A stretch of 64,000 bases of DNA from Mayamaea pseudoterrestris (Eukaryota): the NCBI GenBank assembly GCA_027923505.1, contig BROI01000017.1, forward strand, positions 620,001-684,000, in the 5' to 3' direction. Positions 1 to 60,692 of this stretch are shown here, in pieces. The position numbers were made by a program, and so were the translations under genes. The notes beneath the pieces were generated by a model. That model ran no database searches. It saw only the letters and a program-made list of their open reading frames with translations, and had not been told where the DNA came from. Position 1 is the first letter of the stretch. Every line of letters begins with the position of its first letter.

Positions 1-3000
1 AATCGTCGTGCAAGGGCGGCTTGGACGGGCAACGATGCTCGATATTTGCTTCGCACACGTCCTGTAAGAATAAAATCAGAGACTGGGAGCTTTCCGGACT
101 CAATTAGCCGCCATTGTCTCACAAGATAATCCTTGACAGCAGGTACACCGTGACTAAACAACGTCTTCAGAGCGTTTGCCAGCACCTTCTGTGTCAAATT
201 GCATTGATCGCGGCGAATTGTCTCGATACCTTTCGCTTCGAATTCTGGCTTCCTCTGGTCTATGGACTCGTATTTCATCCCGCAATACTTCTTCTTTGTC
301 TGCATGATGGAACCCGCATAAACCTTTTCGAGTTTAAGCTGGACAGGCGGTGGATTATTTTTAGTTACCGCTGTGCAAAACTCTTCGCCAAACCGGAAAG
401 CCTCATGAACGGATCGACCTGGCAATCGAACGAAGACCGAATCCGTGTCCCCATATATTACGGTGCAGCCTTTCCATCGACCATTAAGTTCGCTTCCCCA
501 TCTGTTTGCGAGATTGATCGCGTCCGTTAAAGTCCGTCTCCCACATTCAACGATCGTATCGGCAAGCAAGGGCATTGCGCAGCGGCCACTAAAAGTTGCG
601 CTCGTATAGCCATAAGTCACATTGGCAACGTACTTAAGAGCAAGCTGCCTTGCTTCGAGCTGCCTCAATACGGCACTTGGCAAGTCCTTAACGTTCCGCT
701 TATACAGTTTAGCCGCCCTTTTCAACATGGCGCGAGTCGTTAGCATCTCATCCAATACTTGTGGAAGCACTCCTTTCACCACGGTTTCAGATACATAGAT
801 GTCGCCAGTTGGTGCAATGTAAGCTCTGTCACTTCTATCGCTAAACAAAGACTTTAGATGATGCTTGAGTATCGTAGCGGACCGTCCTTCCGGATATGAG
901 AATGGTCCAATCTTGCCCGACGTACGTCCCTTTCTCCGCATCTCGCTTCGTGTACTTTGATATTCCAAATGACCTCCTATTGTCGAGTAGCATAAATTAT
1001 ATGCGATGACTAATGACGGATATAACGCCGTAAAATCACATACGACGACTGGATCATTGTAATGCCCAGATTTTGGTTCGAGAGTCAAGGCTTGGACTTG
1101 CAACGCCTCTTGACGGTCGGCGGCATGGAGCGACGGTGAGTAGAAAAAGTATCTCCTTCCAAGAAGTCCTTGACCTGATATGTCCTTATTATCTGGCTCG
1201 TTCTCTTGGCGATTTAATCCACGCCTCTCTTTCCATGGGCTTTGGGTCTGTGAGACGCTCCCGCTGCCCAAGCTTGATAATGCATCCAAAGAAGAAGGCC
1301 TCATGCCGGCTTTTGTTCCCCTTTCTCCCGAGTCCAAGCTCTGTAAAGCGCGAAGCAAAACACCCTCAACCTTGTATTGCGACCCTCTAATGCCAGGAAA
1401 ACTTTGACTCAACTCAACTCCACTTAAACGCGCAGCTTCGCCAGCCCTTCCTATCACATCCATTGCATCGAACAATACAATAGTAGACATGGCTTGAACA
1501 AGTCTGTAATGAAGGACACGCCATCTCTCTCTTCCTTTCTTTTCGCTGTACCATTGGGTGAGTTTAAGATTGTCATGAAACGGTATGCGTTTGCCTGTGA
1601 CCGTAGCTACGACAGCCTGCAGATAAGATGCATTTGGGTGTTTCACCTCTTCCGCTACAAGCTTCCATGACGCAAATACAAGCCTTCCGACGATTGATGA
1701 CGCTGCAACGCCGGCGCCGACGCGTTCGTCCCAATCGGCACCCATTCCACTTCCTTTCCACTTGTCTTTCTTCTCGTCAAGAGGTGTTTTTCCGTCCGCA
1801 ACGCCACCAGTTTCAATTTGAAAAACATTATCGCGATCGTTGGCTTCAGCGAGTGCCGAAACAGTCGGCGTGCGTCCCAAAAGCTTCGCAAGATCGATTC
1901 CGCATGGCGCATTGTTAGAATCTTTCATCATTGAGCTTCTCTCAATCAAAAAACCCAGCCCAGCTCCTTGGGTATCCCACGAGCACATAAGATCTGGATC
2001 TTTCCAGCGAACAAGGCTGGCGAAACGAAGAATTAGCTGCCGCTCGTTCAAAAAACACTCGACAGAAAGCGGGGAACATTTCCCCATTGTTGCAACTGGC
2101 ATGCTCGCATGTATGCTAGCCTTAAGAGTTGACAAGGGATCTTTGTTGATCCCACTCCCGACAAATTCAAGTTCAGCGTCTGGCGGCACCAACAGACACC
2201 CACGCTCCACTACCTCAAGTGACTCTCCTCCACCGGGATCTATTCCCAGCGCATAGACAATAGCTGACACACGGTCTCTGTCTGGTTGCGGAGTGAGAGC
2301 TAAGGGACGCGAAGAAGCATCCTTGCCCTTTCGACATTGTACATGTATTTCAACCGTTAGCAAAGATACCGGAGACGGTAATTCCTTCCTGTTAATCTCG
2401 CTTGAACGGCTCGCACTCTGCGACGGACGGGTGGTTGCCTTTAAATTCCCTCCGCCTTCAATGTGAAGTTTGCCACCTTGGGCACCTATGCCTTTCAAGG
2501 CCGGGTCATTGCTGGGAGTATGACCTGGCATTGTTTCGTCAGGAGTTGACTTCGTCAAAGAAATTGAAAGTGATTCATCTTCCTGCAAATTTTCTTTGAA
2601 GGACTGCGACTGGCTACAACTCTCGTCCGCCAGTTGCGATGCTAATGCCGGCTGACTCGAACGCCATTCCACTTCCTCCACATTACGTTCGTCTACTTTG
2701 TCGATACAATCTGCAAAGGGTATGTCAACACGTTGTCGCTTCTTAGAAACAGGCGTGGTCGGCTCAATCGGCGGTCGTGTTCGCCGCACCCATGATAAAA
2801 CCGTCTTATAATTCGGCGGCGGGCACGTTCTTGTTATGCTATAACCGCCCTCGGATGAATTTTTTGGTAAAGAAGACCTTATTTTATGTGGATACATTTG
2901 AAAATATGACGAGGCAAACATCCACGACGGCTGATCTTTTTCACGCTCCATCGGTAACAAAGTTGTTCCACGTCCTTCCAAAATCTCTCCTCGAGTTGGG

Positions 3001-5807
3001 GGCTTTAGGATATCGTCTTCCATTGACTTAAAAGCTGCCGTGACAGTATTTAAGTCTGTTGGCTTATTGTCCGAACTGAACGCTTCGTTCGGATTCGCCG
3101 GCGACGAAAGTGGCGAATGAAAAGGCTGCGACGTGTGCGACGTGTAATCTTCTGCGTCCGAATCAATCATATTATTATCAATTTGTTCAATCACAGTTTC
3201 AACATTTTGGTGCCCAGCTTGCCAGCGATCAGGTGTAGAATGTTTGTCGTCAAGCCGCGAGATACCAATCTGTCCAGAAGGGCATAGAGGCGACTGAAGA
3301 TGGGAGGACATTTCATTTACATCATTACATTGGTCGTCATATATTGTTTCATCGTCATCGAGATCTTCGTATGGACGTAAAGTTTCTGGGTCTATGTACT
3401 CATCCACATGTTCCATAGGTCCGTCTAGTAATAAACCATCCCCTCGGTCAATTCGTTGCGTTAATTCCATCTGTGTTTGCCAGTCGACTACATCACATTC
3501 ATGCCCAAAGCGACCGCAAGCAGAAACAGGTAGCGCGCTGGCACGAGACGAAGCGCGCGATGGCGGCATCTGTGACAAACTTGGATGCAAATTAGCGGCG
3601 AAACCAGCTACTTTGTCCATGTGTTCGTCATCCGTACAAGGAGAAGAAGCTTGCGATAAGGGCATCTGCGACATGCTTACATGAAAGTTTGCGTCCAATG
3701 CATCAACTTTGTCCGTTTGATCATCATCTGAGCAAACGGTAGCCGGATTGTCGAGCCAAGGCGACAATGATGCTGTTTCATCACCATCGTCTTTCAACTC
3801 ATCCCCTCCGTCGCCGCCCAAATCCTCTAGCGCGAGCAATGCCTCCTCGTCCGTTGGAGTCAGTCCACATGACACCTTTGGTTCGGCGCCGACGTATGCG
3901 ATGTCTTTTTCTCGCAGATGCAGGCTCTTTACCTTTGCCATGTCCGCATCTATTCGATCAATCCGTGCTCCATGCTTTTCAACAATGTCCTTTGCTACTC
4001 GTCGATGTGCGTCGTACAATCCATCAGTCACTCGCACGAGTCGCTCCATACCTTCCTTCGCCAAGCGCGCTCCCGACTTACCACCGCCATCCGGCGCCTG
4101 GAGTGTCAATGGCGGCGTCACTGGTTGCTCCATATTTGGCTGACTCAAGAAGTCGTCCTGTGGTGGCAGCAATCTCCGCATGCGCCGACGCTCCTGCGTC
4201 CACATTGCCTCGAGACTTGGGACAGCCCGCCAACAGACGTGTTGGTTGTCATCTTGGTCTTGCTTTTGGGTCAAAACATCGTGCACGTTCAAAATGTGCG
4301 CAACCGTCGTATCCAGTTCCACCTGACAACTAGTCTGCGACCTGGACCAAGACCCTCCAGGCAAGTTGGCGTTGAGTAAGTCAATTCTTAATGCCACAGA
4401 TGCATCCTCGCTAGAAGCTTGTGTTGGCAGAGACGGGAACAACCGCTGATTTTGCTTCTCTAATTGACTATTGGATGGCGAGGTCTCTTCCAAGTCCTCT
4501 GGCGTAGCTTGATGCAAATCGGGCAAATTTTCCAGTGCCATGTCATCAACGACCAATTCTTCATCGTAATTACTCGCGTCGGTCGTCTGAAGCGTAGTCA
4601 GCAATGCATTATGGGTCTGCGGCAAAGGTGGCCAAACTGATTCCGTATTTGACCGAAGAAAGAGCTGAGTCTCGTCGCTATTTTCCGCTTCAATATAATT
4701 GCGTGAAACATCATTTCCTCCAAGCGTTGGATATGACCGATGAATCGACGCTCGCAACGGCAACTCTCGTCGAAACAATGCTTGCTCCAAGTGTATATAG
4801 GACATACCCGCCAGATTGTAGTCTTTGAAAAATTGCATCGAGTACGGAATGTGTGCCTCGTAACAATGAAACGCCAGTGTTTCGGGTGGATTGTCTGAAA
4901 TTTCGGATGCGTCATCGTCGTCATGCTTCCTGTCGGCTGAGTGACCATCGTCATCATACGTATACTGCTTTGGATTGGGATGAAACTGGTACGGAACATC
5001 CGCAAGTCCCTTCTCCAACGCAAGCTTGATGCGCCACCGCTGGGAAGGATCGTAGTATTCGATTCTTACAAATGGCGCAGCAATGCCCGGGCAGTACGTA
5101 TAAAAGCCACGTCCCACAACCACAGTCAATTGTCGAATGAATCTCGCATGGACCGTCTTCTTACTACTGCTAGCGCTGCTGACACTTGCTTGCAGCGTCG
5201 CTTCCAGTGCGTCCTGCAGAATAGTTAAAATGCCTTCTACCTGCTTTGGACAGTCCCAATCCGTATGATCTTGCTCACCGCGCAGAAGTAAAGCATATCG
5301 TCCAGGCCCCCCATCTGGTCCAGCAACGACAGGTCGGGCCAGCATGTAGGGGAAGGCTCCGTGAATGTAGAGACAGGCTGACTGCTTGGGAGGCTGCAAA
5401 ATAGGACGAGGCGCATCGTCGTTGCTATCATCGTATGACGAAAAGTCGCGGCGCAGAATGGGACCAAAGATGCGAAAGACTGGGACTTGTAGATTGTTCG
5501 TATGTTTCGTACTAGTCGCTTTTCCAAACACGTCTGGTTGCCGATCGATTCCGACATATGCATCAACGCGAACCGACTCATCTACATCGCCTTGTAGACT
5601 ATGTTTGGTCGCCTCGTGAAATTCTTTCGGCTCCAAGGGTGTAGGATCCATCATAATGTAGTCGATTACCGTAGCTAAAACGGAACATAGAGGTGACGGA
5701 GGAGACTGTACATGGTTGGCAGGTACAAATTGGTCGCTTGACGAATGCTGAAGGTCCTCATGATGGTCGTCACCAGCGTCCGACGGCGAGAAGAAGTAAC
5801 AATTCAT
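1..5807 (-). CDS. REV3: DNA polymerase zeta catalytic subunit (family B); 3' end lies outside the window
   Basis: Hand translation from ATG 5807 gives VIDYIMMDP...VPVFRIFGP...QSACLYIHGAFPY (REV3 N-terminus). The same frame at ~1079 gives EPKSGHYNDPVVVCDFTALYPSLVIAYNLCYST, followed by NVTYGYTSATFSGRC and YGDTDSVF. Missing from the ORF track, consistent with no stop inside the window. Confidence 0.93.
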   Translation of the reverse strand, partial: MNCYFFSPSDAGDDHHEDLQHSSSDQFVPANHVQSPPSPLCSVLATVIDYIMMDPTPLEPKEFHEATKHSLQGDVDESVRVDAYVGIDRQPDVFGKATSTKHTNNLQVPVFRIFGPILRRDFSSYDDSNDDAPRPILQPPKQSACLYIHGAFPYMLARPVVAGPDGGPGRYALLLRGEQDHTDWDCPKQVEGILTILQDALEATLQASVSSASSSKKTVHARFIRQLTVVVGRGFYTYCPGIAAPFVRIEYYDPSQRWRIKLALEKGLADVPYQFHPNPKQYTYDDDGHSADRKHDDDDASEISDNPPETLAFHCYEAHIPYSMQFFKDYNLAGMSYIHLEQALFRRELPLRASIHRSYPTLGGNDVSRNYIEAENSDETQLFLRSNTESVWPPLPQTHNALLTTLQTTDASNYDEELVVDDMALENLPDLHQATPEDLEETSPSNSQLEKQNQRLFPSLPTQASSEDASVALRIDLLNANLPGGSWSRSQTSCQVELDTTVAHILNVHDVLTQKQDQDDNQHVCWRAVPSLEAMWTQERRRMRRLLPPQDDFLSQPNMEQPVTPPLTLQAPDGGGKSGARLAKEGMERLVRVTDGLYDAHRRVAKDIVEKHGARIDRIDADMAKVKSLHLREKDIAYVGAEPKVSCGLTPTDEEALLALEDLGGDGGDELKDDGDETASLSPWLDNPATVCSDDDQTDKVDALDANFHVSMSQMPLSQASSPCTDDEHMDKVAGFAANLHPSLSQMPPSRASSRASALPVSACGRFGHECDVVDWQTQMELTQRIDRGDGLLLDGPMEHVDEYIDPETLRPYEDLDDDETIYDDQCNDVNEMSSHLQSPLCPSGQIGISRLDDKHSTPDRWQAGHQNVETVIEQIDNNMIDSDAEDYTSHTSQPFHSPLSSPANPNEAFSSDNKPTDLNTVTAAFKSMEDDILKPPTRGEILEGRGTTLLPMEREKDQPSWMFASSYFQMYPHKIRSSLPKNSSEGGYSITRTCPPPNYKTVLSWVRRTRPPIEPTTPVSKKRQRVDIPFADCIDKVDERNVEEVEWRSSQPALASQLADESCSQSQSFKENLQEDESLSISLTKSTPDETMPGHTPSNDPALKGIGAQGGKLHIEGGGNLKATTRPSQSASRSSEINRKELPSPVSLLTVEIHVQCRKGKDASSRPLALTPQPDRDRVSAIVYALGIDPGGGESLEVVERGCLLVPPDAELEFVGSGINKDPLSTLKASIHASMPVATMGKCSPLSVECFLNERQLILRFASLVRWKDPDLMCSWDTQGAGLGFLIERSSMMKDSNNAPCGIDLAKLLGRTPTVSALAEANDRDNVFQIETGGVADGKTPLDEKKDKWKGSGMGADWDERVGAGVAASSIVGRLVFASWKLVAEEVKHPNASYLQAVVATVTGKRIPFHDNLKLTQWYSEKKGRERWRVLHYRLVQAMSTIVLFDAMDVIGRAGEAARLSGVELSQSFPGIRGSQYKVEGVLLRALQSLDSGERGTKAGMRPSSLDALSSLGSGSVSQTQSPWKERRGLNRQENEPDNKDISGQGLLGRRYFFYSPSLHAADRQEALQVQALTLEPKSGHYNDPVVVCDFTALYPSLVIAYNLCYSTIGGHLEYQSTRSEMRRKGRTSGKIGPFSYPEGRSATILKHHLKSLFSDRSDRAYIAPTGDIYVSETVVKGVLPQVLDEMLTTRAMLKRAAKLYKRNVKDLPSAVLRQLEARQLALKYVANVTYGYTSATFSGRCAMPLLADTIVECGRRTLTDAINLANRWGSELNGRWKGCTVIYGDTDSVFVRLPGRSVHEAFRFGEEFCTAVTKNNPPPVQLKLEKVYAGSIMQTKKKYCGMKYESIDQRKPEFEAKGIETIRRDQCNLTQKVLANALKTLFSHGVPAVKDYLVRQWRLIESGKLPVSDFILTGRVRSKYRASLPVQAALARR

Positions 5808-6060
5808 GGTCAATTATAAGCTTGTATAAAGCAACAGACAAGAGTTTATTTTTAATCATGTCTTGCTTTGAATGATACTAATAGCCTCGTCTGATGACTT
5901 GCACAATTAGCGGAGAAATCCCATGGTGAAACGTACCGAGGTTCGCACACCACGCTTTTCACGCATTCGTACCGGTACTAAATAGACGTCGGAGCGGTTT
6001 TGAATGTCTGAACTCCATCCATCAAATTCAAAATCGCCGTGTCATTTTGTTCGACAAACC

Positions 6061-7566
6061 ATGGCGAATCCAAACTCCTCAACCCTTTTCACGGGCATCC
6101 TCATTGGGTCCTCTGCGACCCTGTTGCTCACATGGGTCTACACAAGATTTGCGGAAAGGAAAAATGAGACGCCTTCCTCGTTCAATGAGCCGCAACAGAA
6201 ACCACAACGGCGACGACAGCAACAACACCAAGTCCTTCCTCCATCCATTCGCGACGAACAATTATCGCGATCAACACTCTACTTTGGACAAGAAAACATG
6301 CAGAAACTTTCAAAGCATTCTCGCGTCTGCGTGGTAGGTCTTGGTGGAGTCGGCTCTCACGCGGCGGTTGCCTTGGCGCGGGCTGGCCTTGGTCCTTATT
6401 TGCGGCTCATTGACTTTGACCAAGTGACACTTTCAAGTTTGAATCGACATGCATGCGCAACACTGCAGGATGTTGGAATACCAAAAGTGACATGTGTGCG
6501 TGAATATATTCGCAAAATTTGTCCAAATGACGAGTATTTGATGGTGGATGTTTGCGTTGAACTCTTCAATGCTGCAGCTGCGGACAGATTACTGGAGTTG
6601 CCAGATGGCGAACATTGGGACATGATCATTGATGCAATTGATGATGTTCCAACCAAGGCGGAACTCATTCAGTATTGCTTGAAGCATAAGATTCCAGTCG
6701 TCTCCTGCATGTCGGCGGGTGGCAAGGCCGACGTTACCCGCTTGCATATTTCTGACTTGCAATCGGCTGCAAAGGATCCACTCGCAACCAAGCTACGGCA
6801 AACACTGAAACGATTAATGAAGAATGAGACTGGTGATAATGACGACGGTGACGATGCTCCATCATCATCATCTTACTTGGAAGACATGGATCGACTATCA
6901 ATCTTGTACTCATCCGAGAAGACAGTCACAAAGCTCGCAGCACTCACACCCGAACAGCAAGCTGCTCCTCATACGTTTGGCGCGATGGATCACATGCGGG
7001 TCCGCGTCGTGCCGGTGCTAGGAACCATGCCGGCAATTATGGGACTATCATTGGCGGCAGTTTGCATGACCCGACTTGGTCAGAAACCGTTGCAGCCAGT
7101 TCCAGGGGAGCGGATTGGACGAAGCGTGAGACATCGCATGCTGCAGCATTTGAAAATGCGAGAAGAAAAGATACAAAAGCACGTGCTGGCAAAGGCTGGG
7201 TTAGAAACGTTGCCGACTGCTAATATTGACGACTCGGACGGAAATGGCGACGACGCAGAGGAATCTGACGACAATCATGGCTGTATGGTGGACGGAACTT
7301 GGATTGGCCGCGTGCAAGTGGACATGGACGACATTGACTTCCTATTTGAAATCTGGCGAAATCGATGCGCCGTGACGGGTGCACGACTTGGCACTACGTT
7401 GGCGCTTGTCCGCTGGAACATGGATAAACCATCAACATGCGACAACATTGTGCTCATGAGTGCAAAGGCGATGAAGCTATTTGACAAGCCAAATGGCAAG
7501 AGTGATATACCCGAAGCTGTTCAACGAAGCATAGAGGAGCGATTGGAAACTTGTCGGTGTGCATAG
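6061..7566 (+). CDS. tRNA threonylcarbamoyladenosine dehydratase (TcdA/TCD1-2, ThiF/E1-like family) with N-terminal membrane anchor
   Basis: VCVVGLGGVGSHAA, LIDFDQVTLSSLNRHA, IIDAIDD, DPLA and VVPVLGTMPAIMG motifs. Alternative start at 6004. Confidence 0.88.
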   Translation: MANPNSSTLFTGILIGSSATLLLTWVYTRFAERKNETPSSFNEPQQKPQRRRQQQHQVLPPSIRDEQLSRSTLYFGQENMQKLSKHSRVCVVGLGGVGSHAAVALARAGLGPYLRLIDFDQVTLSSLNRHACATLQDVGIPKVTCVREYIRKICPNDEYLMVDVCVELFNAAAADRLLELPDGEHWDMIIDAIDDVPTKAELIQYCLKHKIPVVSCMSAGGKADVTRLHISDLQSAAKDPLATKLRQTLKRLMKNETGDNDDGDDAPSSSSYLEDMDRLSILYSSEKTVTKLAALTPEQQAAPHTFGAMDHMRVRVVPVLGTMPAIMGLSLAAVCMTRLGQKPLQPVPGERIGRSVRHRMLQHLKMREEKIQKHVLAKAGLETLPTANIDDSDGNGDDAEESDDNHGCMVDGTWIGRVQVDMDDIDFLFEIWRNRCAVTGARLGTTLALVRWNMDKPSTCDNIVLMSAKAMKLFDKPNGKSDIPEAVQRSIEERLETCRCA

Positions 7567-8855: not shown

Positions 8856-10703
8856 ATGATGTCACATGATGAAACGATCGCATTTGCCAAGGAATGGGCG
8901 ACAATGGACCCAAACGAAGCGACCAAGCTACATGTTCTTGACTTGATTAACGCAGCAACCTCTAATAAGAATCTTGAGGCAATGTCAAAGCTTGAACGAT
9001 TGTTTCCCTCTGACAAGTCTAGAATCAGTTTTGGAACTGCTGGATTACGCTCCGAAATGAAACCTGGACCGCTTGGCATGAATGATCTGGTTGTGATCCA
9101 AACGGCGCAGGGATTGGCGCGATTCTGCGAATCGCAATCCATTTCGACGGTTGTCATTGGATATGACCACCGTTCTCGGTCTGAATATAAACTTTCGTCA
9201 CGATCATTTGCCATTTATTCAACTCTATGCTTCCAACAAGCAGGCTTTCGCGTCTTATTGCTAAATGGATTTGTGGCAACGCCAATAGTGCCCTTCACGC
9301 TATCGTATCTGGCCGATGAAAAGGCGATTGGTATCATGATTACAGCGTCGCATAATCCCAAACAAGATGCCGGCTACAAGGTTTACTGGAAAGATGGTTG
9401 TCAGATACGACCTCCCATTGACCAAGGCATGGCGAGTGCGATCTTGGAAAACCTTTCGCCATGGACCGACTATCAAGCACTTGTTAAGAAGCTGCAATGT
9501 TCCATGGGCCATGTGAATGATCCTTGCTTTGGTTTGAGCAATCCTGACTTTACCAGAAAAGTGATTGACGCCTACTATGAAGCTGTCGCAAAATCTGGCA
9601 TGGTGTCAGGACAAGCTTTAAAGGTTGATGCCCCGACACGACTTCGATTCTGCTACTCTGCCATGCATGGGGTCGGCCACGCATTTGCTAAGCGAGTCTT
9701 TAAAACACTCAAGGTCGCGCCGTTTGTACCCGTTCCATCGCAGCAAGAGCCCGATCCTGACTTTCCTACTGTAGTCTTTCCAAATCCGGAGGAAAAGGGG
9801 GCACTTGTCCTTGCGCAAGCCTACGCCGTGGAACATGACTGTCAAGTTATTTTGGCGAATGATCCCGACGCCGATCGTTTGGCGGTTGCTGAGTACGATG
9901 AGACGAAAAAGTCATGGATAGTCTTTACGGGAGATCAAATTGGAACCATGCTGGGACATTGGCTATGGGAGCAGTTTCGAGACAAGTCCAGCAAACCACT
10001 TGCCATGTGCGCGTCAACGGTCTCATCTGGCATGCTTCGCGAGATTGCCCGCGTCGAAGGCTTCTACTTTGAAGACACGTTAACAGGATTTAAATGGATT
10101 GGCAGTCGGGCCGCCGAGTTGAATGCTGGCGTTTATCATACTATTTTCTGCTACGAGGAAGCGATTGGATTCTGCTGTGGCGACGTCATCTATGATAAGG
10201 ACGGAATAACAGCTGCAGCAGTTTTTGCCGAGCTGACAATGGCAGTGTATGCTCAAGGCATTACACTGGAAAAACACATACAGAGTTTGTATGACAAGTA
10301 TGGAGAGTTTGTGAGCAACAATGGCTACTTTGTCGTGCACGATACATCGTTGGCTCCCCGCATCATGGATGACCTCACCGGCAAGGGTTCCTTCACTACG
10401 TTAAAGGCCGTCGGGCCGTACGAAGTGGAAGCCATTCGCTATTTGGGTGAGCCAGGCTATGATTCACGCACGGTTGACAATAAGCCAACGCTGCCGACCT
10501 CCAAGTCAAGCCCAATGCTTTCGCTGACTTTCAAGAATGGTTTGGTGGCGCAGTTTAGAGGCAGCGGAACGGAGCCCAAATTCAAATATTATCTTGAACT
10601 AAAAGGCAAGCCCGGCGTATCGCGAGCGCAAGTGACAAGCGACTTGGATGAAATGTCGAGATTTATATTGAAGGAACTGTTCGGCAGCTATGGTCTGTCT
10701 TGA
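8856..10703 (+). CDS. Phosphoglucomutase/phosphomannomutase, PGM2-like
   Basis: FGTAGLR, ITASHNP (phosphoserine loop), DPDADR (metal loop), YEEAIG and RGSGTEPK motifs. Confidence 0.93.
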   Translation: MMSHDETIAFAKEWATMDPNEATKLHVLDLINAATSNKNLEAMSKLERLFPSDKSRISFGTAGLRSEMKPGPLGMNDLVVIQTAQGLARFCESQSISTVVIGYDHRSRSEYKLSSRSFAIYSTLCFQQAGFRVLLLNGFVATPIVPFTLSYLADEKAIGIMITASHNPKQDAGYKVYWKDGCQIRPPIDQGMASAILENLSPWTDYQALVKKLQCSMGHVNDPCFGLSNPDFTRKVIDAYYEAVAKSGMVSGQALKVDAPTRLRFCYSAMHGVGHAFAKRVFKTLKVAPFVPVPSQQEPDPDFPTVVFPNPEEKGALVLAQAYAVEHDCQVILANDPDADRLAVAEYDETKKSWIVFTGDQIGTMLGHWLWEQFRDKSSKPLAMCASTVSSGMLREIARVEGFYFEDTLTGFKWIGSRAAELNAGVYHTIFCYEEAIGFCCGDVIYDKDGITAAAVFAELTMAVYAQGITLEKHIQSLYDKYGEFVSNNGYFVVHDTSLAPRIMDDLTGKGSFTTLKAVGPYEVEAIRYLGEPGYDSRTVDNKPTLPTSKSSPMLSLTFKNGLVAQFRGSGTEPKFKYYLELKGKPGVSRAQVTSDLDEMSRFILKELFGSYGLS

Positions 10704-14885: not shown

Positions 14886-17800
14886 ATGACGACTGATAGC
14901 AACGCCATGAAGTACGATTCCGTTGGCATTCTCGCCATGGAGGTTTACACCCCGCGCACCTTTGTCAGCCAAGCCGCCTTGGAGAAGCATTCCGGCGTAC
15001 CAGCCGGCAAGTATACCATTGGCTTGGGCCAGGAAGGATTGGCGTTGACGGGCGATGCTGAAGACATTAACAGCCTCTGCTTGACCGTTGTGCAGAGTCT
15101 TTTGGAAAAGTGAGTACAATATCATCATTTTGGAGTTGATGATGTTTGTTTGGTTTGCATGCTGCGATTGAGTGAATGAATTGGAGACTGCTTGACATTT
15201 CCTTGGCGATGAGAGTCTTGGTCAAATTCCTCTTCAAGTTTTTGCATTCTACCAACATTTGTTCTCACTATTGATCATTTTGATTCTTCTTCTGCCAGAT
15301 ATGACATTGACCCCGATTCCATTGGCCGCCTCGAAGTTGGTACTGAAACGCTCGTCGACAAATCCAAGTCGACCAAGACGGTTTTGATGAGTCTCTTTGA
15401 CAAGAATGGCAGTGGCAGTCGTGACATGGAGGGAGCTACCATTGTGAATGCCTGCTACGGTGGCACTGCTGCACTATTGAATGCCGTCGCCTGGGTCAAG
15501 GAGCGACTCGGAGCCAATAAATCTAATGTTAGCACGCAATCACCACTCGCCATTGTCGTTGCGGCTGACATTGCCGTTTACGCCAGAGGACCAGCGCGAC
15601 CGACGAGCGGCGTTGGTGCCGTGGCTCTGTTGGTGGGAGCAAACGCTCCACTCGTAATCTTGCCGGAGCGAGCGACGCACGCTTGCCATGTGTGGGACTT
15701 TTTCAAGCCCGATCATTCCGTGGAATATCCCGTGGTAAATGGCGCTGACTCACAGACTTGCTACTACCGGGCACTTGATGATGTTTACATGAGATTGGCG
15801 GAGCAATTGAGCAATGGTGATGACGATTTATTTACGGTCGAGTCAACTGACTACTACTGCTTCCATGCGCCATACAACAAGTTGGTGCAGAAAAGCTTTG
15901 CGCGGCTGTACTTGTTGGATGCCGTTCGAAAGTACAGACGTACTAAGCTGCAAGAGTCAGCATTGACGGGCGACAGATTATCAACGGAACACGTTGATGG
16001 AGCCAGTCAAAAGACAGACACCATCGATAGCAATGGTGACAGCAAGATGCACAGCAACGGTGTCAGTCACCACGACAACGATAAAGACTTACCTTTGCGA
16101 GATTGGGTTAACAAGCCACTTGAAGAGACGCACTCGGATCGCAAATTAGACGATGTTTTAAAGAAGCTATCGTCCGACGCTTTTTGCGCCAAACTTGCTG
16201 ATGCAAACATGGCCAGCAAACTTGTCGGAAATACCTACACTGCCAGCATTTTCTTTGGACTCGCATCATTGATTGATCGTGTGGGAAGCAAGGGGGAACT
16301 TACTCCGGGCAAGAATATTATCATGTTTTCTTACGGATCGGGCGCTTTGGCTACAATGTATCGCATACAAGTGTAAGGACGAAATTGCAAGAACATGCAC
16401 ACTTGTTTCTTTATATAATTCTCACCTCGCCTTTTCTTCATTCTTAGTCGCGAACCGACAGGAGCATCAGCCAGATTTACAATTGCTAACATTGCAAGCG
16501 CCATGAACCTAACTGAACGTCTTGCTAGTCGAGAGAGTGTTGATCCGAGTGAACTTGATCATGCTTTGGATACACGAGCTCGCATGCATCACGCCGGTGC
16601 GCCCTACGCCCCCGTCTATCCAACGCTTGGTCGTCTCTTTCCAGGGACTTACTATCTGGAAGAAATTGACGCGCAATGGAGGCGGACTTATCTTCGAATT
16701 CCGCGTGACGCTCGCGTCGATCCGCCTGGATCGAGCTTGGCACCGCAAAGTGTCCTTCAACTTGCTCAGAACGAAGCGACCATCGAACAAGTGGTCGACA
16801 CACGGGCACTCGAAGCACCACAAAAAGTGGCATGCGTCATTACCGGGACAGCCGCAGGATTGCCGGGGACAGAAAGGGTCGTGTTTAAGAGTGAAAATCT
16901 TCAGCGCTTGATCGACGGCAAGCAGTGTATCGCTTCCTTGTCGGAAGGCGACAAACAGGCCATGCTGGAAAAGAACGTGGTACAGCTGGTGAAGCAGAAG
17001 GATGGATTAATTCAGAAGCTGCCGGTCGATTCGGAGGAACACATCATCAAGCTAGCCGCCAAGATTGGAACGTTTGATTTGTCTGATGCCTATGGTATTC
17101 CTCCTGGGCTTGCACAAACAATGGATATTGCAGCTCAATTAGCAGTAGCTTCGGGAATGGAAGCGTTGAAGGATGCAGGATTAGTCAGCGGCCAGTCCAA
17201 TGATCCTAATGAGTGGAAACTCCCTGAACAATTCCGAAACAGCACAGGCGTTGTATACGCTAGCAGCTTTCCAGCTATGGATGCGGCAGTCGGCGAAGTG
17301 ATGCGTTTCCTGCAGTCACAGACGAGTGATGCGAACTCGATGCGATTAATATCGTCTCTACGCAGTCGTCTCCTCAGTCTGACACCGGAGAAACAACTAT
17401 CGGATGACGATGAGACTGCTTTTGCTCGCTTGCTAAAGCGATCCCACGAACTTGAGCCGAACGTGGCAGCCGCAACCTACGAGTTTGATCGCAAATTTCT
17501 GTTTCGCGTGCTGGTGCTTGGCAACGCGCAACTGGCCCAGCTTACAGGCTGCCGCGGTCCAAATACTCAAACGAACGCTGCATGCGCTGGAACAACGCAG
17601 GCTATTGCCATGGCGCAAGACATGCTTATATCAGGCCGAGCTGAACGAGTGGTCGTGGTCGCCGGTGACAACGCTAGTGGCAGCACGTTGCTGCCGTGGC
17701 TGGGTTCTGGATTTCGTGCCTTGGGTGCCGCCTGTACTAAGGACGCCGTCGAGGATGCCGCCATGCCGTTTGACAAACGCCGATCTGGCTTGCTTTTAGG

Positions 17801-18419
17801 CGCCGGAGGCATTGGCTTGGTGCTTGAGACCGAAGCGAGTTCGGTGAACCGCCAAAAGCTGCCGGCTCATGCATTCCAGATCAAGGCTCGATTGCTGCAC
17901 ACGCAATATTCTAACTCGGCCTTTCATGGCGCTGCTTTGGACAGGAAACACATTGCATCGGAACTGCAACGCTTCTTGGCCGACATTGAATTGGTTCATG
18001 GTATATCCAAAACCGAAATTGCTGAACATGGTGTGTACTTTTCGCACGAGACCTCTACGCATGCATCCGATGCCAGTAGCTGCGCCGGTAACGAGATATC
18101 TGCTCTTCGACAAGCATTTGGCGACGAAGACTTGTCCAAGCTGCTGATTCTAAACACCAAGGGGTTTACAGGCCACCCAATGGGTGTTTCGTTTGAGGAT
18201 GTTGCTGCTGTCGAGGTGCTTATGCGGCAGAGGGTGCCACCTATACCCAATTATCAGGAAAAGGATGAGTATCTGGGCAATTTGAACATCTCCAAAGGCG
18301 GGCCTTACGCTTGTCGGTATGCTTTGCGGTTCGCTGCTGGCTTTGGCAGCCAAGTGGCTTTTGCATTGTATGCGGCAGCAGATCAGGAACGAGTTAAACC
18401 TGGGCCGGTTAGTAAGTGA
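14886..18419 (+). CDS. HMGS: HMG-CoA synthase fused to a C-terminal beta-ketoacyl synthase domain (~1089 aa; introns 15110-15298, 16373-16447)
   Basis: HMGS motifs [34 protein letters not shown] and GTYYL. KS motifs [24 protein letters not shown] and KGFTGH. Both GT..AG introns keep the reading frame. Confidence 0.9.
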
Positions 18420-19941: not shown

Positions 19942-22900
19942 ACTCCCCTCAAGTCATACCTAATAGTTAGATTCCTTGAAGAGCAGGTTCTTTAAGTGCT
20001 TGCTTGCCGTAGCCCGTGGAAGAAACTTGGTAAGTACATCCGCCGGGTTTGTCGTTCCCATGATGTGGTTGAAATTAATAATTCCCGCCGCAATCGCTTC
20101 GCGTACACGGTGAAATGCCAGTGCATTGTGTCGCTTCGTCAGACTAGAGTGCGGTAGGTTGCTGCTTTGCGTTACCGACTTGTTGTCTCCAAACATCCAT
20201 GAAGGTCCGTCGAGCGGAACTCCCAACATGCGTAGCGTGAAGCGAAGATCCATGATCTGCTCCGTGCTCACTCTCGCTGCTACAAACTCCGAGCCGTACG
20301 TCGCCGTCTCGACCGTCGCTTGGCGTTTCGAAAACCAATCAACGACTGTTCCATTCAACATGTGTAGCATGCCCATCGCTGCCCGTCCCGTCGTGTAATC
20401 GTGGTACAGGTTCGCATCTTCGAACGTTGACATTCGCACCGCCTTGCCGCGCGGCGTGGGCATGTTCCACGGAAGCTCTTCGCAGATCTTGCCGTACACA
20501 CTGTAATCCCAATCCATCTTGTCAACTGTCGCGTATCGCTCGTCCGTTGGAATCGAAACGTTGAATCGAATCGCTCCATCCGGGTATCTTCGTAGGTATC
20601 CGCAAATATGCTTCAACCGTTCCAAGTGCCCCGCTCGTGGCGCAGCTCGGAATCTCCCCATAGTCATGACAGCACAGTGAATGTCGAATCGACATAAACT
20701 TACTGCCCATTGCAACGCACCAATTATCGATTGATACTTCGCAATTCCGTCGTCGTCAAGTTCTTTCGTTTCGTCGAGTTCCGGATGATCGCCGTCGCGT
20801 AGTGGACTTGTCTGCGGTCGCGGTTCCTCGCCGAACATTTCTTTGTAGTTCGCTAGTAGTCTTGTGACGTACTTCTTCGCTCCGAAGCAGAGTACGCCGT
20901 CGTCGTCTCGCCAAACGTCTGCGCCCAAATGATATGCCAATGGACCGACGCCCTTCAACTTGTAGTTGTAGTTCTCAATTAAAAGATTCGTTAGTTCCTT
21001 CGGATTCTTCATCGCTATCGCTAAATCGTCGACATACACACAAACGTATTCGTAGTGCGTGCCTTTATCGCGCATCCACACGTCCGGTTCTGCGATACAC
21101 GGCATGAAGCCAATGTCGCGGAGCGTGTCTGCAAAGTGCTCGTGCCAGCGTGCGCCTGACGTGCGAAGACCGTATAATGCCTTCACGATCGTGAGCGTGT
21201 GACCCTCGAGCTCCCGAACTCCGGACCTGCCACGATATAAACCTTCTCTTTCGTTTTCGCTTCCAAGTATGCGTTGCCGACGTCAGCTGCCCACAGTTCC
21301 AGACCGTTGAGTTCCGCTAACATCGCTACCATTCGTAGACTTCGCAATGACACAACGCCCGAGTAAACTGAATCCTTCGGCGGCTCTGTCATATGTCCTC
21401 CTCACACGAGACGTGCTTTCCGTCGCAAATCGTACTTCACATCGCACATCATGTGCACGTTTATTCGTTTCCACGCCGCCCGCCTAACCTTACCGACTCC
21501 TTGATCTGCGAACGTGTCGTAATCATTTATCTGGATTTAATTCCGTTCGAATCGCATCCGTCCACAGCGTGTTGCCGTTGATCTCGTCGAGAGCTTTCGC
21601 ATCTTTATAATTGCGCGGCAACCTTACGCCGAATGTAGCGTACGCCGTTTGCTTCGATTTTCGTTTCGCCGCTGTTACCATCTGTCGAAACTTCTTTCCT
21701 TCCGAGTGTAATGCTCCAGCTGCTTCCATCCTGGCTTGTCGAGTAAGCCGTGCTTGAGTCCATACTCTGCGATCGTTATCGGATCGTCCTTCTTCATGAT
21801 CGCGAGAGGCTCCACGTTGTCGTTACGTCAGTCCATTCGACGAGAACGTTACTTGAACTTCCTTTGTATGTCGGATCGTTCGGTTTCAAATTAAGCTCGT
21901 GTCCGATTACCTTCGTGAATACCCACTGAGTCGCCGGATCGTTTCGTATATCTTCGTCCATCTGTCGTTCGATTAAATCCGACAGTTCGTTGTAATCATT
22001 AAGTCTTTCGCTGGCTCCTCCCATTTAGTTGAAACGCGCCTCGTTTCGAGTGGCTCGGTTATCGCCTTCCGATATTTCGCATGCAGTCCTCATTTTTCTC
22101 CGTTTTGCCGTGTTCCCTTACGAACGTCGTCCGATGGGTTCGCGGAAGACCAGCATTTCTTCCTGATTCCTCATCGCTTCTGAGAGAACTTCGCTGGTAC
22201 GTTTGGCGTGGTTCTGCTCGTGTTTCGTCGTCGTTTCCTTCCGTGTTGTTGTTTACTACTTTCTGTCACATGCGTGCGGTGGCGTCCTGTCGGGATCTCG
22301 TTCGTCGAAATCGTCGTGCGCGTGCTCGACATCGCAAACAGTCGAGTCCTTACTGGCACGTCCGGACGTCATGATGACAGTCGGATACTTATCCAAATCA
22401 TCGAACGGGTTCTGTCGTCCAAGTACACCAGGCCATCGCGAATTGCCAATGGTAAAACGTAGCCCAATGTTCGTCGTAATCTGTTGCGTTCCGCCAAACA
22501 TGGTCGGAATATCGTCGACGGGATGTCCCATTGCGCGCAATTGATTCGGGCAATGAATCGTCGGTCCGTTCCCGCTTTTAAAGCATACTGGTGACACAGA
22601 AGCAGAATGGTTTCGCCACTGGCAGGGTCTTTGCCAGTCCAGCTGCAGTGCCAATCTTGAGCTGGGACAATATGATCGTCAATACCAGTCACATCCACCC
22701 GGCGTTCGCTCCGAAACGACGAGCATGCCTCTCCGCATAAGCTTCCGCCTGCGCCGTCGATGAGCGCGCCTTCGTTGATCCGCTCGTAGTGTGCGCGATT
22801 GACGCGCATACGACGATGCATGTTGAAGCTGAATGTACTCGTCCGGTGTTATCAGTCGTCAACGATCCTGTCACTTGCTGAGTTGTAGTGCAATACTCGC

Positions 22901-44695: not shown

Positions 44696-45098
44696 TGTTA
44701 ATCTAACACCGTTGACGATTTCGCAGTCAACGTCTTACCTCCAAAAAGCTCCGATACAGGGTCCTTGGCCACGGTCTGTACAGCTCTTGATGGAGATGGC
44801 TCGTCGAATAGTCTTGCGCTCGCCACTACACGAATACGACTGCACTCTCGTCGCAGACTAGTAGTTCTATATTGTGAGCTTATCGCTACATCGCTACATC
44901 GACCACTCGGAAGATCATCCGATCAATCCGTTTCTTTCAATCACATTCCATCAGTCGTAACTGGTCGTTCCATTCATACAACGCATCCACACGACGGTTG
45001 CGCATTTTCTTCATTCACATGTCACATACGACAGCTGCGGACTCGACACAAGCTAATTAGGGTTCGGGCTCTTGACTTCGCCGCTCTGCGACTTGTCA
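44696..45098 (-). repeat. 5' LTR of element 2 (TGACA...TAACA)
   Basis: Direct repeat of 37197-37577, lying just upstream of the gag ATG at 44606. Confidence 0.88.
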
Positions 45099-48000
45099 GC
45101 CGAGCACGTTGATGAAATTCATAAGCGAACGAGGCGCTCCACTCGAGCTCTTCTCTGACTGCGCTAAGGAAGCTTGCAGCAAGGAAGTTGAGGAAATCCT
45201 TCGTATGATGATGATTCGGCGTCATAAACGAAGCGAGCCATACCAACAGAACCAAGATCCCGCGGAGCGCGCCATTGGCGACGTCGAGCGCCAAGTGAAT
45301 GTCGTCATGGATCGTACTGGGACACCAGCTCCATTCTGGTTGCTTTGTACGCTGTACATTGCGAGTCTCTTTTGCGTTATTTCCCAAGCTTCTTTACAAG
45401 GGAAGACTGCCTTTCAGCATACTACTGGCCAAGTCCCAGACATTTCGCCATACTTGAATTTCCATTGGTGGGAGCGTGTATCTTTCCTTGACGACAATCC
45501 CGACAAGATGACTGATAGCATGCAACGCGCTGGTCGTTTTGTTGGCGTTGCAAAGGATGTGGGCGACCATTTAACTTATTGGATCCTTGATGAGGAGACG
45601 ATGAAGGTCATTCCTCGGTCTGTTGTTGCAAAGCGCGACGATCCTGCAAACCCCAATCTCCGGCTCGATACGCCGACTGTTTCTGCTACTGCAGATGGGG
45701 AGGCATTCGTTTACACGCAAGACGGCATCATTGAAGCATTTAACTTGAGTGATAAAGACGAAGAGTCTCCAGTAACAGACAGCGGCGAGCGCTCCCCGGG
45801 TGAAACCGTCGAGAGCGACGAGTCGAGCAATCCTTCGAGCAATCCTAATCGTCCTCAAACTCGATCACAAACTAAAGCAAATCCTTCTCCAAGCAATCGC
45901 CCCAAGTTGCCTTACTTTTCACCTGAAGATTTGATTGATCGGTCCTTTCTATACGACGCTCCAAACAGGCAACGCCTTCGAGCCGTCGTCAAACGCAAGC
46001 TAGACACGTTGGACGCTCAGAATCATCAAAACATTAAGTTCCTTTTGCATCTTGGTAAAGAAGAAGCGGAGGAGGTGATTGATTACGTTAAATTGAACGA
46101 CATCTTCGAGGCTCTTGTGCTGGATGAGGTAGCTAACCCTCAAGCGTGGCCGACTTACAAAGAAATCCTTTCCCACGCTGGTCCGTACACAAACCGGTCC
46201 CCTGAGTGGCGTGGAAGCAAGTTTAACGTGTTGGTATTATGGGACGATGGCGAGGTAAAATGGGAGCCATTGAATCAATTTGGCAAAGATGATCCCGTAA
46301 GCTGCGCCGACTATGCTCGAGACCATGGGCTGCTTGAGACGGATGGATGGAAGTTTCTGCAGAAGCATGCGAGGCGAGACAAGCTCCTTAAGCGCAAGAT
46401 CAAAGCAGCGAAGTCAGCTCAATCAAAACGCGGTCCACGCTACAAGTTTGGCGTCCGTATCCCTCGCGACTGGCGTGAAGCTCGTTCCTTTCAAGAGGAA
46501 GCTGGCCATACCAAGTGGACTGATGCGGAGCAAGTTGAAATTGACAATCTATTTGAGTACGATACGTTTAAAGACCTCGGTAAAGGCGACAAGCAACCGA
46601 AGGGGCATCAAAAGATCCGCACCATTTGGGTCTACGATTGCAAACATGACTTTCGCCATCGAGCAAGGATGGTGGCTGGAGGGCACTTGACGCCCGAGGC
46701 AGACGATGCTTACTCGAGCGTCGTATCATTGGAGATTATGCGCTACGCGTTGGTGATTGGAGAGCTGAATGGACTCAAGCCCATGGTCGGCGACATCGGC
46801 AATGCGTATCTCGAGGCGTACACTAAAGAGAAAGTTTATTTCGTCGCTGGTCCTGAGTTCGGCCATCTTGAAGGGCATTCCCTGCTCATTGTCAAAGCTC
46901 TATACGGTCTGCGAACTAGCGGAGCTCGTTTCCATGAGCGTCTAGCCGATGCTCTGCGTGACGAAGGATTCAAACCTTCGCTGGCGGATCCCGACCTGTG
47001 GTTGCGAGACACTGGCGATTGCTACGAGTATATATGCGTCTGGGTTGACGACTTGCTTGCCATTCTGAAGGATCCAGAGGCGTTTTACGAGGCGCTGCGC
47101 AGCAAGTATCAGTTCAAATTGAAAGGCGTCGGGCAACCCGAGTATCATCTTGGAGGCAACCGTCCGGTACGCTGATCCTGATGGCACGCTTGGCGACCGG
47201 TGGTAAGCTTCGGCAATTACGAGCGCATGTTTGGCGGTCCTCCAAAGAAGTATTCTTCGCCGCTCGACAAGGACGACCATCCTGATTTAGAGCGCGCGCT
47301 GGAGCGCAGAGCTCGCCGATTGCTGCGCGCCGATGGAGTCAAGATGTCTTGCGGATCCTTTCATATCGGAGCAGTGATCGAGCCTGTAGGGCATCTTGAT
47401 AGAGCGTTCGTGGCTACGCGTGATCATCCTGACGCTGCGATTCGCTTCCGATTCTGGCCTGGGCAATCAGCATTGGAGAGCAACCCGAGTTTGGATTGGA
47501 TGTAAGCGTCCGCGGAGGATGAGCTTGCTTTATATCCTCCACCAAAGGGAAGAATGGTGCGTCTGACGACATGGAAAGACGCCAATTTAATGCACTGCAA
47601 AGTAACTGGCAAATCTTGCAGCGGCATTCTTCATTTCATTAACCAAACGCCCGTCAAGTGGTTCTCCAAGTTACAAGATACAGTGGAGGCGGCAACGTTT
47701 GGATCTGAGTCAATGAGTGGACGCATTGCTACCGACCATATCATCGGGATGCGCGCGTCGCTCAAGGCGATGGGTGTGCCTATAGAGAAGACCAGCTGGA
47801 TGCTTGGAGACAACCAGTCGGTAATCACTCAAAGCACAGTCCCTAGCTCAACACTTACAAAGCGTCACAATGCTCTGGCCTACCATCGGATTCGCTGGGC
47901 GGTGGCGACTAAGGTAATCAAGTTCGTCAAGGTCGACGGTAAGGAAAACGTCGCAGACCCTCTGACCAAGTACATGAATTACACTGAGTCAATGCCTTTG

Positions 48001-60566: not shown

Positions 60567-60692
60567 TCGGTGTTGGCTTGACGATGCTTCTTTCGGTACA
60601 AGTACTCCTTATGAAGAAACCTTCTTTTTTATCTGCCAACATTATGCACTTGTAGATGATAAAAGCTTGATAGAAGAATTACCCGAAAAGCC

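Follow-up and report, generated by a model that had tools for sequence, protein, structure and literature searches.

Why would an enzyme of the mevalonate pathway carry a complete ketosynthase at its C-terminus? The question is raised by a gene on the forward strand (14886-18419) of a 64,000-nucleotide stretch of the Mayamaea pseudoterrestris genome (GenBank assembly GCA_027923505.1, contig BROI01000017.1, positions 620,001 to 684,000; hereafter the window, in whose numbering all positions are given), which encodes HMG-CoA synthase (HMGS) and a condensing-enzyme domain that we denote KS' in a single protein. HMGS consumes acetoacetyl-CoA, and ketosynthases with a Cys-His-His active site form beta-ketoacyl thioesters via decarboxylative (Claisen) condensation. 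The architecture is most simply read as joining two steps that follow one another. Our preferred interpretation, to which we assign a probability of roughly 0.45, is that KS' is a decarboxylative acetoacetyl-thioester synthase feeding HMGS, a role like that of the bacterial enzyme NphT7 but filled from another protein family.

The gene has three exons, and its spliced coding sequence of 3270 nt translates into 1089 amino acids that are identical, in every letter, to a deposited hypothetical protein of this pennate diatom (P0001). Exon 1 (14886..15109) opens with the ATG at 14886, 9 nt downstream of an in-frame stop, and starts the HMGS N-terminal domain, ending at a donor GT at 15110; intron 1 (15110..15298; 189 nt, GT..AG) separates it from exon 2 (15299..16372), which holds the HMGS core; and intron 2 (16373..16447; 75 nt, GT..AG) is followed by exon 3 (16448..18419), which encodes the HMGS C-terminus, the linker and the entire ketosynthase up to a TGA stop at 18417-18419. 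The preliminary description of the locus had placed the fusion within one exon, and this proved correct, with no stop between the HMGS C-terminus and the ketosynthase. Its landmarks were also recovered where it had put them: the C-terminal HMGS stretch (aa 499-514) begins at 16644, and the ketosynthase Cys and its two His at 17583, 18045 and 18174, respectively.

Four public sequencing runs cover the gene, with neither a library kind nor an RNA source on record for them, and splicing is read from the joints of their contigs, in which transcript ends are not visible. Contigs of two runs (X3, X4) join 15109 directly to 15299, skipping the 189 nt of intron 1 with its GT..AG borders; loose ends at 16372 and 16448 in contigs of three runs (X2-X4) spell the neighbouring exon; and a 1244-nt contig (16551-17794; X2, X3) starts in the C-terminal part of HMGS, crosses the linker and reaches into the ketosynthase, past the codon for Cys812. 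These joints form the pattern that would be expected from spliced mRNA. In other diatoms, MMETSP open reading frames (ORFs) of 1071-1123 aa that are marked 'type:complete' hold all four Pfam families. We considered, and rejected, a pseudogene or an annotation chimera in view of the single open exon, the spliced contigs and these complete reading frames. The run contigs themselves form two classes, 99-100% and 95-99% like the window (14911-18150), and their differences from it include an in-frame 3-nt insertion near 14912-14914 and the omission of 3 nt at 15941-15944; they look like a second allele or a close strain.

Model scores and motifs mark residues 12-516 (14919..16697, introns inside) as a genuine HMG-CoA synthase of the eukaryotic type. 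On TIGR01833, the eukaryotic HMGS equivalog of NCBIfam, the whole protein reaches 470.1 bits (cut-off 286.2), against 192 bits on the prokaryotic HMGS equivalog, and the Pfam families HMG_CoA_synt_N (PF01154) and HMG_CoA_synt_C (PF08540) extend across exons 1-3. The catalytic motifs EVGTET (aa 87-92, 15333), NACYGG with Cys127 (15453-15455) and FHAPY with His264 (15864-15866) are all present; the catalytic Glu, which we take to be one within EVGTET, is identical, as are Cys127 and His264, in each of the 23 full-length fusions that were aligned, a set of pennate and centric diatom proteins on which all conservation figures for the fusion are based. Exon 2 also contains a poorly conserved HMGS insert (aa 291-345), with an all-pairs identity of 32%. 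Most diatom orthologues (e.g. P0015, P0016, P0030, P0078) carry an N-terminal extension of 20-50 residues with a conserved Ala/Gly-rich hydrophobic stretch (consensus LAVGAxxGA...RR; alignment A1, columns 1-60), which is missing from the Mayamaea protein and a few others and may act as an anchor or in targeting. The linker that follows the HMGS half (16698..16823, aa 517-558) has an all-pairs identity of 55%, with L530, A531 and P532 invariant.

The remainder of the protein, KS' (16824..18380, aa 559-1077), has a KAS II fold. An AlphaFold model of residues 545-1089 alone, built with 28 relatives, reached a mean predicted local distance difference test (pLDDT) of 88 and a predicted template modelling score (pTM) of 0.87, and its best Foldseek matches are FabF/KAS II structures (PDB 1kas, 4jrh, 4ls8; E ~1e-26, TM on target 0.86-0.89, ~20% identity). 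A full-length model with 23 close homologues (pLDDT 49.9, pTM 0.44) was too poor for the relative placement of the two halves. The catalytic Cys, His, Lys and His of FabF align with Cys812 (17583-17585; motif NAACAG from aa 809), His966 (18045-18047; SHETST from aa 965), Lys1004 (18159-18161) and His1009 (18174-18176; both in KGFTGH from aa 1004). KS' differs from FabF in a helical insert of ~60-110 residues, in which two long helices (17277..17453; KS-domain residues 166-224) stand out, in HETxT in place of HGTGT, and in Ala1063 in place of the gating Phe; the corresponding signature motifs are encoded at 18045-18056 (His-Glu-Thr-Ser-Thr) and 18333-18350 (Phe-Ala-Ala-Gly-Phe-Gly). At the sequence level, the FabF alignment covers mainly the C-terminal 280 residues of KS', with the N-terminal part aligned weakly, and FabF aligns only on both sides of the insert, across which many prokaryotic KS' relatives match in one stretch.

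Established families capture this domain incompletely. None of the Pfam and NCBIfam library models searched matches the KS' subfamily above its curated cut-off: the Pfam family ketoacyl-synt (PF00109) gives a partial match on exon 3, covering only the last 95 model positions, PF02801 is not reported, and the best NCBIfam ketosynthase model, fabF (TIGR03150), reaches 109.3 bits against a cut-off of 493.75. KS' thus shares with FabB and FabF the thiolase-type KAS II fold, the Cys-His-His triad and the active-site Lys, and departs from them in family score, HGTGT motif and gating Phe. Membership of KAS III (FabH), the triad of which is Cys-His-Asn, is contradicted by the second catalytic position, which is the His of KGFTGH and not Asn; the match to PF08545 (KAS III, ACP_syn_III) is confined to 36 residues surrounding the Cys (32 bits), and no PF08541 match occurs in exon 3. 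A look-up in a protein atlas returned only generic ketosynthase clusters.

The Cys/His/Lys-His set of KS', which had been described as intact-looking, is kept in nearly the whole family. Cys812, His966, Thr968, Thr970, Lys1004 and His1009 are each identical in all 23 fusions, and in a wider set of 143 KS' domains (18 fused, 33 short, 92 from the megasynthases discussed below) the first His, the Glu that follows it, the Lys and the second His are kept in all 143, and the Cys and the gate Ala in 142 each. All-pairs identity among the 23 fusions is 84% in the KS' core (aa 791-1076), against 76% in the HMGS core and 72% in the HMGS C-terminal part; on this alignment the KS' core is the most conserved stretch of the fusion protein, which suggests that the KS' half is under constraint at least as strong as that on the HMGS half. 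Both halves look catalytically complete. It is established that both are dimeric thiolase-type folds, and KS' might therefore be conceived as a non-catalytic dimerisation or scaffold module, or as a regulatory acyl-CoA sensor, for HMGS; with every catalytic residue kept and the catalytic core the most conserved part, we consider such a role very unlikely.

The same residues bear on whether KS' might mainly decarboxylate malonyl-CoA and so supply HMGS with acetyl units. This is the role of the Cys-less KS in polyketide beta-branching cassettes, of which HMGS paired with a KS is the signature, and of loading KSQ domains; and the two His and the Lys that decarboxylation requires do not vary in the 23 fusions or in the 143 KS' domains. 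The nucleophilic Cys is replaced in those enzymes, however, whereas 142 of the 143 KS' domains keep it, and cytosolic acetyl-CoA is not scarce, such that this explanation appears to us highly improbable.

No PP-binding (carrier) domain was found by Pfam in the three exon translations of the Mayamaea protein, in 6 further fusion representatives or in any of 9 longer relatives (1348-1521 aa), which have no domain beyond HMGS and KS'. CoA thioesters would thus be the available substrates for the fusions examined. This finding also bears on the possibility, raised in the preliminary description, that HMGS-KS' is a polyketide-like beta-branching unit, which would act on some secondary metabolite. 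The domain pair does resemble the HCS (HMG-CoA-synthase-like) cassettes of beta-branching. Against such a unit stand the full eukaryotic score of the HMGS half (470 bits, against 192 on the prokaryotic equivalog), the missing carrier domain, and the retained Cys, which sets KS' apart from the decarboxylating KS of HCS cassettes; moreover, no lipid, isoprenoid, polyketide or enoyl-CoA hydratase gene was found among the 13 large ORFs scanned in the window. The Phaeodactylum tricornutum orthologue (Phatr3_J16649) is, where it figures in two diatom papers (PMC6330534, PMC12168105), handled simply as the HMG-CoA synthase of the pathway. Together these points leave beta-branching disfavoured, and we regard it as extremely improbable.

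How widely the fusion occurs was assessed from database relatives. With exon 3 as the query, 116 of the 120 top-ranking relatives have both HMG_CoA_synt_C and ketoacyl-synt, and the fusion is therefore not a chance pattern; named carriers among the relatives listed include Fragilaria, Cyclotella, Thalassiosira, Skeletonema, Leptocylindrus and Corethron. In a library of representatives at 50% identity, 12 of the 150 listed have an HMGS part, one of them from Phaeothamnion confervicola. When a deep-branching representative, from Pythium insidiosum, was used as the query, 118 of the 120 best relatives listed held both parts, including oomycete proteins (Pythium, Lagenidium, Globisporangium, many Phytophthora species, Saprolegnia, Aphanomyces, Hyaloperonospora, Peronospora, Plasmopara, Bremia, Albugo and Peronosclerospora) and brown algal ones (Ascophyllum, Scytosiphon). 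The Mayamaea protein is 44% identical to the Pythium orthologue over 99% of the latter. Judged by these records, the HMGS-KS' fusion is stramenopile-wide, and parasites such as Albugo and Peronospora retain it.

As an architecture, the fusion has been published before and has database annotations. The preliminary description had raised the possibility of an earlier record in pennate diatoms; such a record exists in Table 2 of Morris et al. (2009, PLoS One, PMC2705460), although the restriction to pennate diatoms was too narrow. That table lists the fusion for Phytophthora sojae (Ps128154), Thalassiosira pseudonana (Tp260768) and P. tricornutum (16649), as one of 21 multifunctional proteins common to P. 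sojae and the two diatoms, with domain order kept between diatom and oomycete genomes; the entry records the same two domains in one protein and gives architecture only, without residue analysis, subfamily or function. No functional study of the ketosynthase half was found in the full-text literature, with subscription papers and supplements, in which a thiolase gene of diatoms or a remark on the fusion may stand, lying outside reach. What is new here, on comparison of sequences, is that KS' is a distinct subfamily with HETxT where HGTGT is usual and Ala at the position of the gating Phe; that its nearest relatives, at 38-44% identity, are the internal second ketosynthase of PfaA-like megasynthases in numerous bacteria and in some archaea; and that it carries all catalytic residues, has the best conserved core in the fusion and comes with no carrier-protein domain that we could find.

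The prokaryotic look noted for the ketosynthase at the outset is borne out by these relatives, which are internal KS domains of bacterial and archaeal megasynthases. An exhaustive HMMER search with the KS half gave 4005 matches at E <= 1e-3, and the best of these, once the fusions and a handful of short eukaryotic proteins are set aside, are proteins of 2000-4000 aa that match at 37-45% identity across the entire ~510-residue domain (KS-domain residues 18-531). Their Pfam order is ketosynthase (KS), acyltransferase (AT), KS', one or more acyl carrier proteins (ACPs), ketoreductase (KR) and dehydratase (DH), sometimes followed by a phosphopantetheinyl transferase (PPTase), and one of them scores 1230 bits against a cut-off of 1010 on TIGR02813 (PfaA, polyunsaturated-fatty-acid synthases). 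The megasynthase KS' (e.g. in loci L060 and L079) has the same insert and the same HETxT and AAGFG signatures as the diatom KS'; it differs in being one domain of a 2000-4000-aa protein with ACPs, whereas the diatom KS' is fused to HMGS with no carrier domain found.

A scan of one prokaryotic genome per species yielded 599 stretches, of which 589 are confirmed relatives, and the best 80 loci (L001-L080, 1.37 Mb) were used for neighbourhood analysis. These come from metagenome-assembled genomes of Myxococcota, Solirubrobacterales and other Actinomycetota, Chloroflexota, Acidobacteriota, Thermoplasmatota and Heimdallarchaeota. Among the 45 loci with full 10-kb flanks, the upstream canonical KS-AT is present in 45, an acyl-CoA dehydrogenase in 42, a phosphopantetheinyl transferase in 34, a biotin carboxylase in 34, and an L060-type carboxyltransferase in 11. 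With the HMGS half as the tblastn query, none of the 80 loci (1.37 Mb) shows a match within 10 kb, and the link to HMGS is therefore, on these loci, eukaryotic only. The conserved prokaryotic set as such consists of an acyl-CoA dehydrogenase, a two-ketosynthase PfaA-like megasynthase of 2800-3200 aa, a phosphopantetheinyl transferase and an acyl-CoA carboxylase (for example L060:5183-20886 and L079:5325-21043), and looks like a self-contained lipid synthase.

The ketosynthase phylogeny that had been proposed as a check places the fused KS' in a supported eukaryotic group and separates KS' from canonical KS. In a FastTree analysis of 85 rows, branches of 2.15 and 2.15 changes per column lie between KS' and the canonical KS that the same megasynthases contain, and the 18 fused domains together with 6 short eukaryotic ones (from Pterocystis, Aureoumbra and others) form one group with support of 100. 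A quick IQ-TREE search of 60 rows, for which 73 of the 92 domains from megasynthases and 13 of the 33 short ones were set aside, gave corresponding branches of 3.3 and 1.8 changes per column and recovered the 24-row group with a Shimodaira-Hasegawa-like approximate likelihood ratio test (SH-aLRT) value of 100. A second eukaryotic KS' group, made up of Cyanophora and of proteins whose N-terminus resembles a methyltransferase, is supported at 96 in the FastTree analysis, and the two eukaryotic groups are joined at 90 in the IQ-TREE analysis. The latter nests both within prokaryotic KS' diversity, a placement to be taken as a lead only, with the root crossing a very long branch. The state of being fused to HMGS changes twice on the tree, and one of these changes is forced by well-supported branches; the HMGS-KS' fusion may have had a single origin. 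The members of the second clade, all of them without HMGS, include a Cyanophora paradoxa protein (P0141, 1018 aa) with ~460 residues after KS' in which no Pfam family is found, and three others (P0145, P0149, P0160; 916-1205 aa); in two of these (P0145, P0149), KS' is preceded on its N-terminal side by a weak match to a methyltransferase.

How, then, might the fused protein work? The gene would encode the mevalonate-pathway HMGS of the organism, C-terminally fused to an active KAS-I/II-like condensing enzyme. KS' would be acetylated at Cys812; a malonyl thioester would then be decarboxylated with the help of the two His and Lys1004, the donor presumably being malonyl-CoA because the protein has no carrier domain; and the Claisen product, an acetoacetyl thioester, would be combined with further acetyl-CoA at the adjoining HMGS to yield HMG-CoA. 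Substrates, product and transfer to HMGS are inferred from the architecture and residues set out above; the preliminary description had already proposed that HMGS is supplied in this way, a plausible reading. The position of the megasynthase KS' beside an ordinary KS-AT, usually near a biotin carboxylase, would fit a malonyl-dependent condensation apart from chain elongation.

Several observations weigh against this mechanism. KAS I/II enzymes normally use carrier-protein-bound malonate, and carrier domains directly follow KS' in its prokaryotic relatives. Beside the active site, HGT is replaced by HET (143 of 143 domains) and the gating Phe by Ala (142 of 143), and the chemistry may for that reason differ from that of canonical ketosynthases. 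Unfused KS' of the fusion clade occurs in transcriptomes (Pterocystis, 575 aa, 'type:complete'), alongside a sister clade with a different fusion; with the Pterocystis domain as the query, a chrysophyte entry of 580 aa and a 'type:complete' MMETSP entry of 589 aa, without HMGS families, were found in a listing made up mostly of diatom exon-level models. Finally, acetyl-CoA C-acetyltransferases are annotated as the pathway's initial step in Saprolegnia parasitica and Phytophthora infestans in the pathway annotation given in PMC5289490 (Tables 1 and 2). The fusion occurs in both genera. A thiolase route may therefore coexist with it in oomycetes, and the ketosynthase is not needed there merely as a gap filler.

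These same facts, that is, the nearest relatives residing in PfaA-like lipid megasynthases with carrier domains, the unfused members of the fusion clade, the differently partnered sister clade and the thiolases annotated in fusion-bearing oomycetes (PMC5289490), would favour a KS' that is an active condenser for another product, either a longer beta-ketoacyl thioester or one made on a free carrier protein from a gene elsewhere, with the tie to HMGS reflecting co-regulation or assembly. We think this unlikely. The order of HMGS and then KS' is kept across stramenopiles, parasites included, which argues for a linked function; no fusion examined has a carrier domain; and none of the 13 scanned ORFs of the window places a lipid or polyketide gene near the fusion gene.

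An acetoacetyl-thioester synthase feeding HMGS would have partial counterparts in known systems. In archaea, a complex of acetoacetyl-CoA thiolase, HMGS and a DUF35 protein couples the acetoacetyl-CoA-forming step physically to HMGS; that complex relies on a non-decarboxylative thiolase and a separate scaffold protein, whereas the diatom protein is a covalent fusion to a predicted decarboxylating ketosynthase. A related bacterial complex is the subject of PMC12960953. Closest in proposed role is NphT7 of Streptomyces sp. CL190, which the account in PMC5509993 presents as a condensing enzyme of the thiolase superfamily that is genetically tied to HMGS in the mevalonate pathway and acts on acetyl-CoA and malonyl-CoA with no carrier protein. 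NphT7 is a KAS III (FabH) homologue encoded by a separate gene, whereas KS' has a KAS I/II fold, a Cys-His-His triad and a covalent link to HMGS.

A more specific proposal, which we consider rather doubtful, is that KS' is a carrier-independent acetoacetyl-CoA synthase derived from a PfaA-like second ketosynthase, captured by an early stramenopile and joined to HMGS. If this were true, diatoms, brown algae and oomycetes would enter the mevalonate pathway via a two-step enzyme with channelling, driven by malonyl-CoA and absent from plants, animals and fungi, and the KS' of prokaryotic megasynthases would be a priming, acetoacetyl-forming ketosynthase. The KS' subfamily, as defined by HETxT, the gate Ala and the helical insert, is widespread in uncultured bacteria and archaea.

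The organisms concerned lend the question some weight, as diatoms and brown algae are of major importance in primary production, oomycetes count among the major pathogens of crops and fish, and the sterols, quinones, dolichols and prenyl groups of all three begin at the HMGS fusion enzyme. Were acetoacetyl-CoA indeed made from malonyl-CoA, an entire supergroup of eukaryotes would avoid the first thiolase step, which is thermodynamically uphill, entry into the stramenopile pathway would be ATP-driven and irreversible, and the carbon and ATP accounting of isoprenoid flux would be altered. Diatom terpenoid engineering should in that case count genes of the Phatr3_J16649 type as two enzymes, and the KS' domain would be specific to the lineage, with no counterpart in the HMGS of plants and animals.

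The surroundings of the gene in the window are those of an ordinary nuclear locus, with genes for a family-B DNA polymerase (3-5813, -), a ThiF-type E1-like enzyme (6004-7566, +), a phosphoglucomutase/phosphomannomutase (8856-10703, +) and Dcc1 (58935-60608, -). Downstream of the fusion gene, fragments of a Copia-type reverse transcriptase (RVT_2) lie at 19960-21282 (-) and 45076-47175 (+), and between them, from 20 to 46 kb, G+C content is raised (0.52-0.59) and AT skew is strongly negative; the region directly downstream of the fusion gene is probably retroelement-rich DNA.

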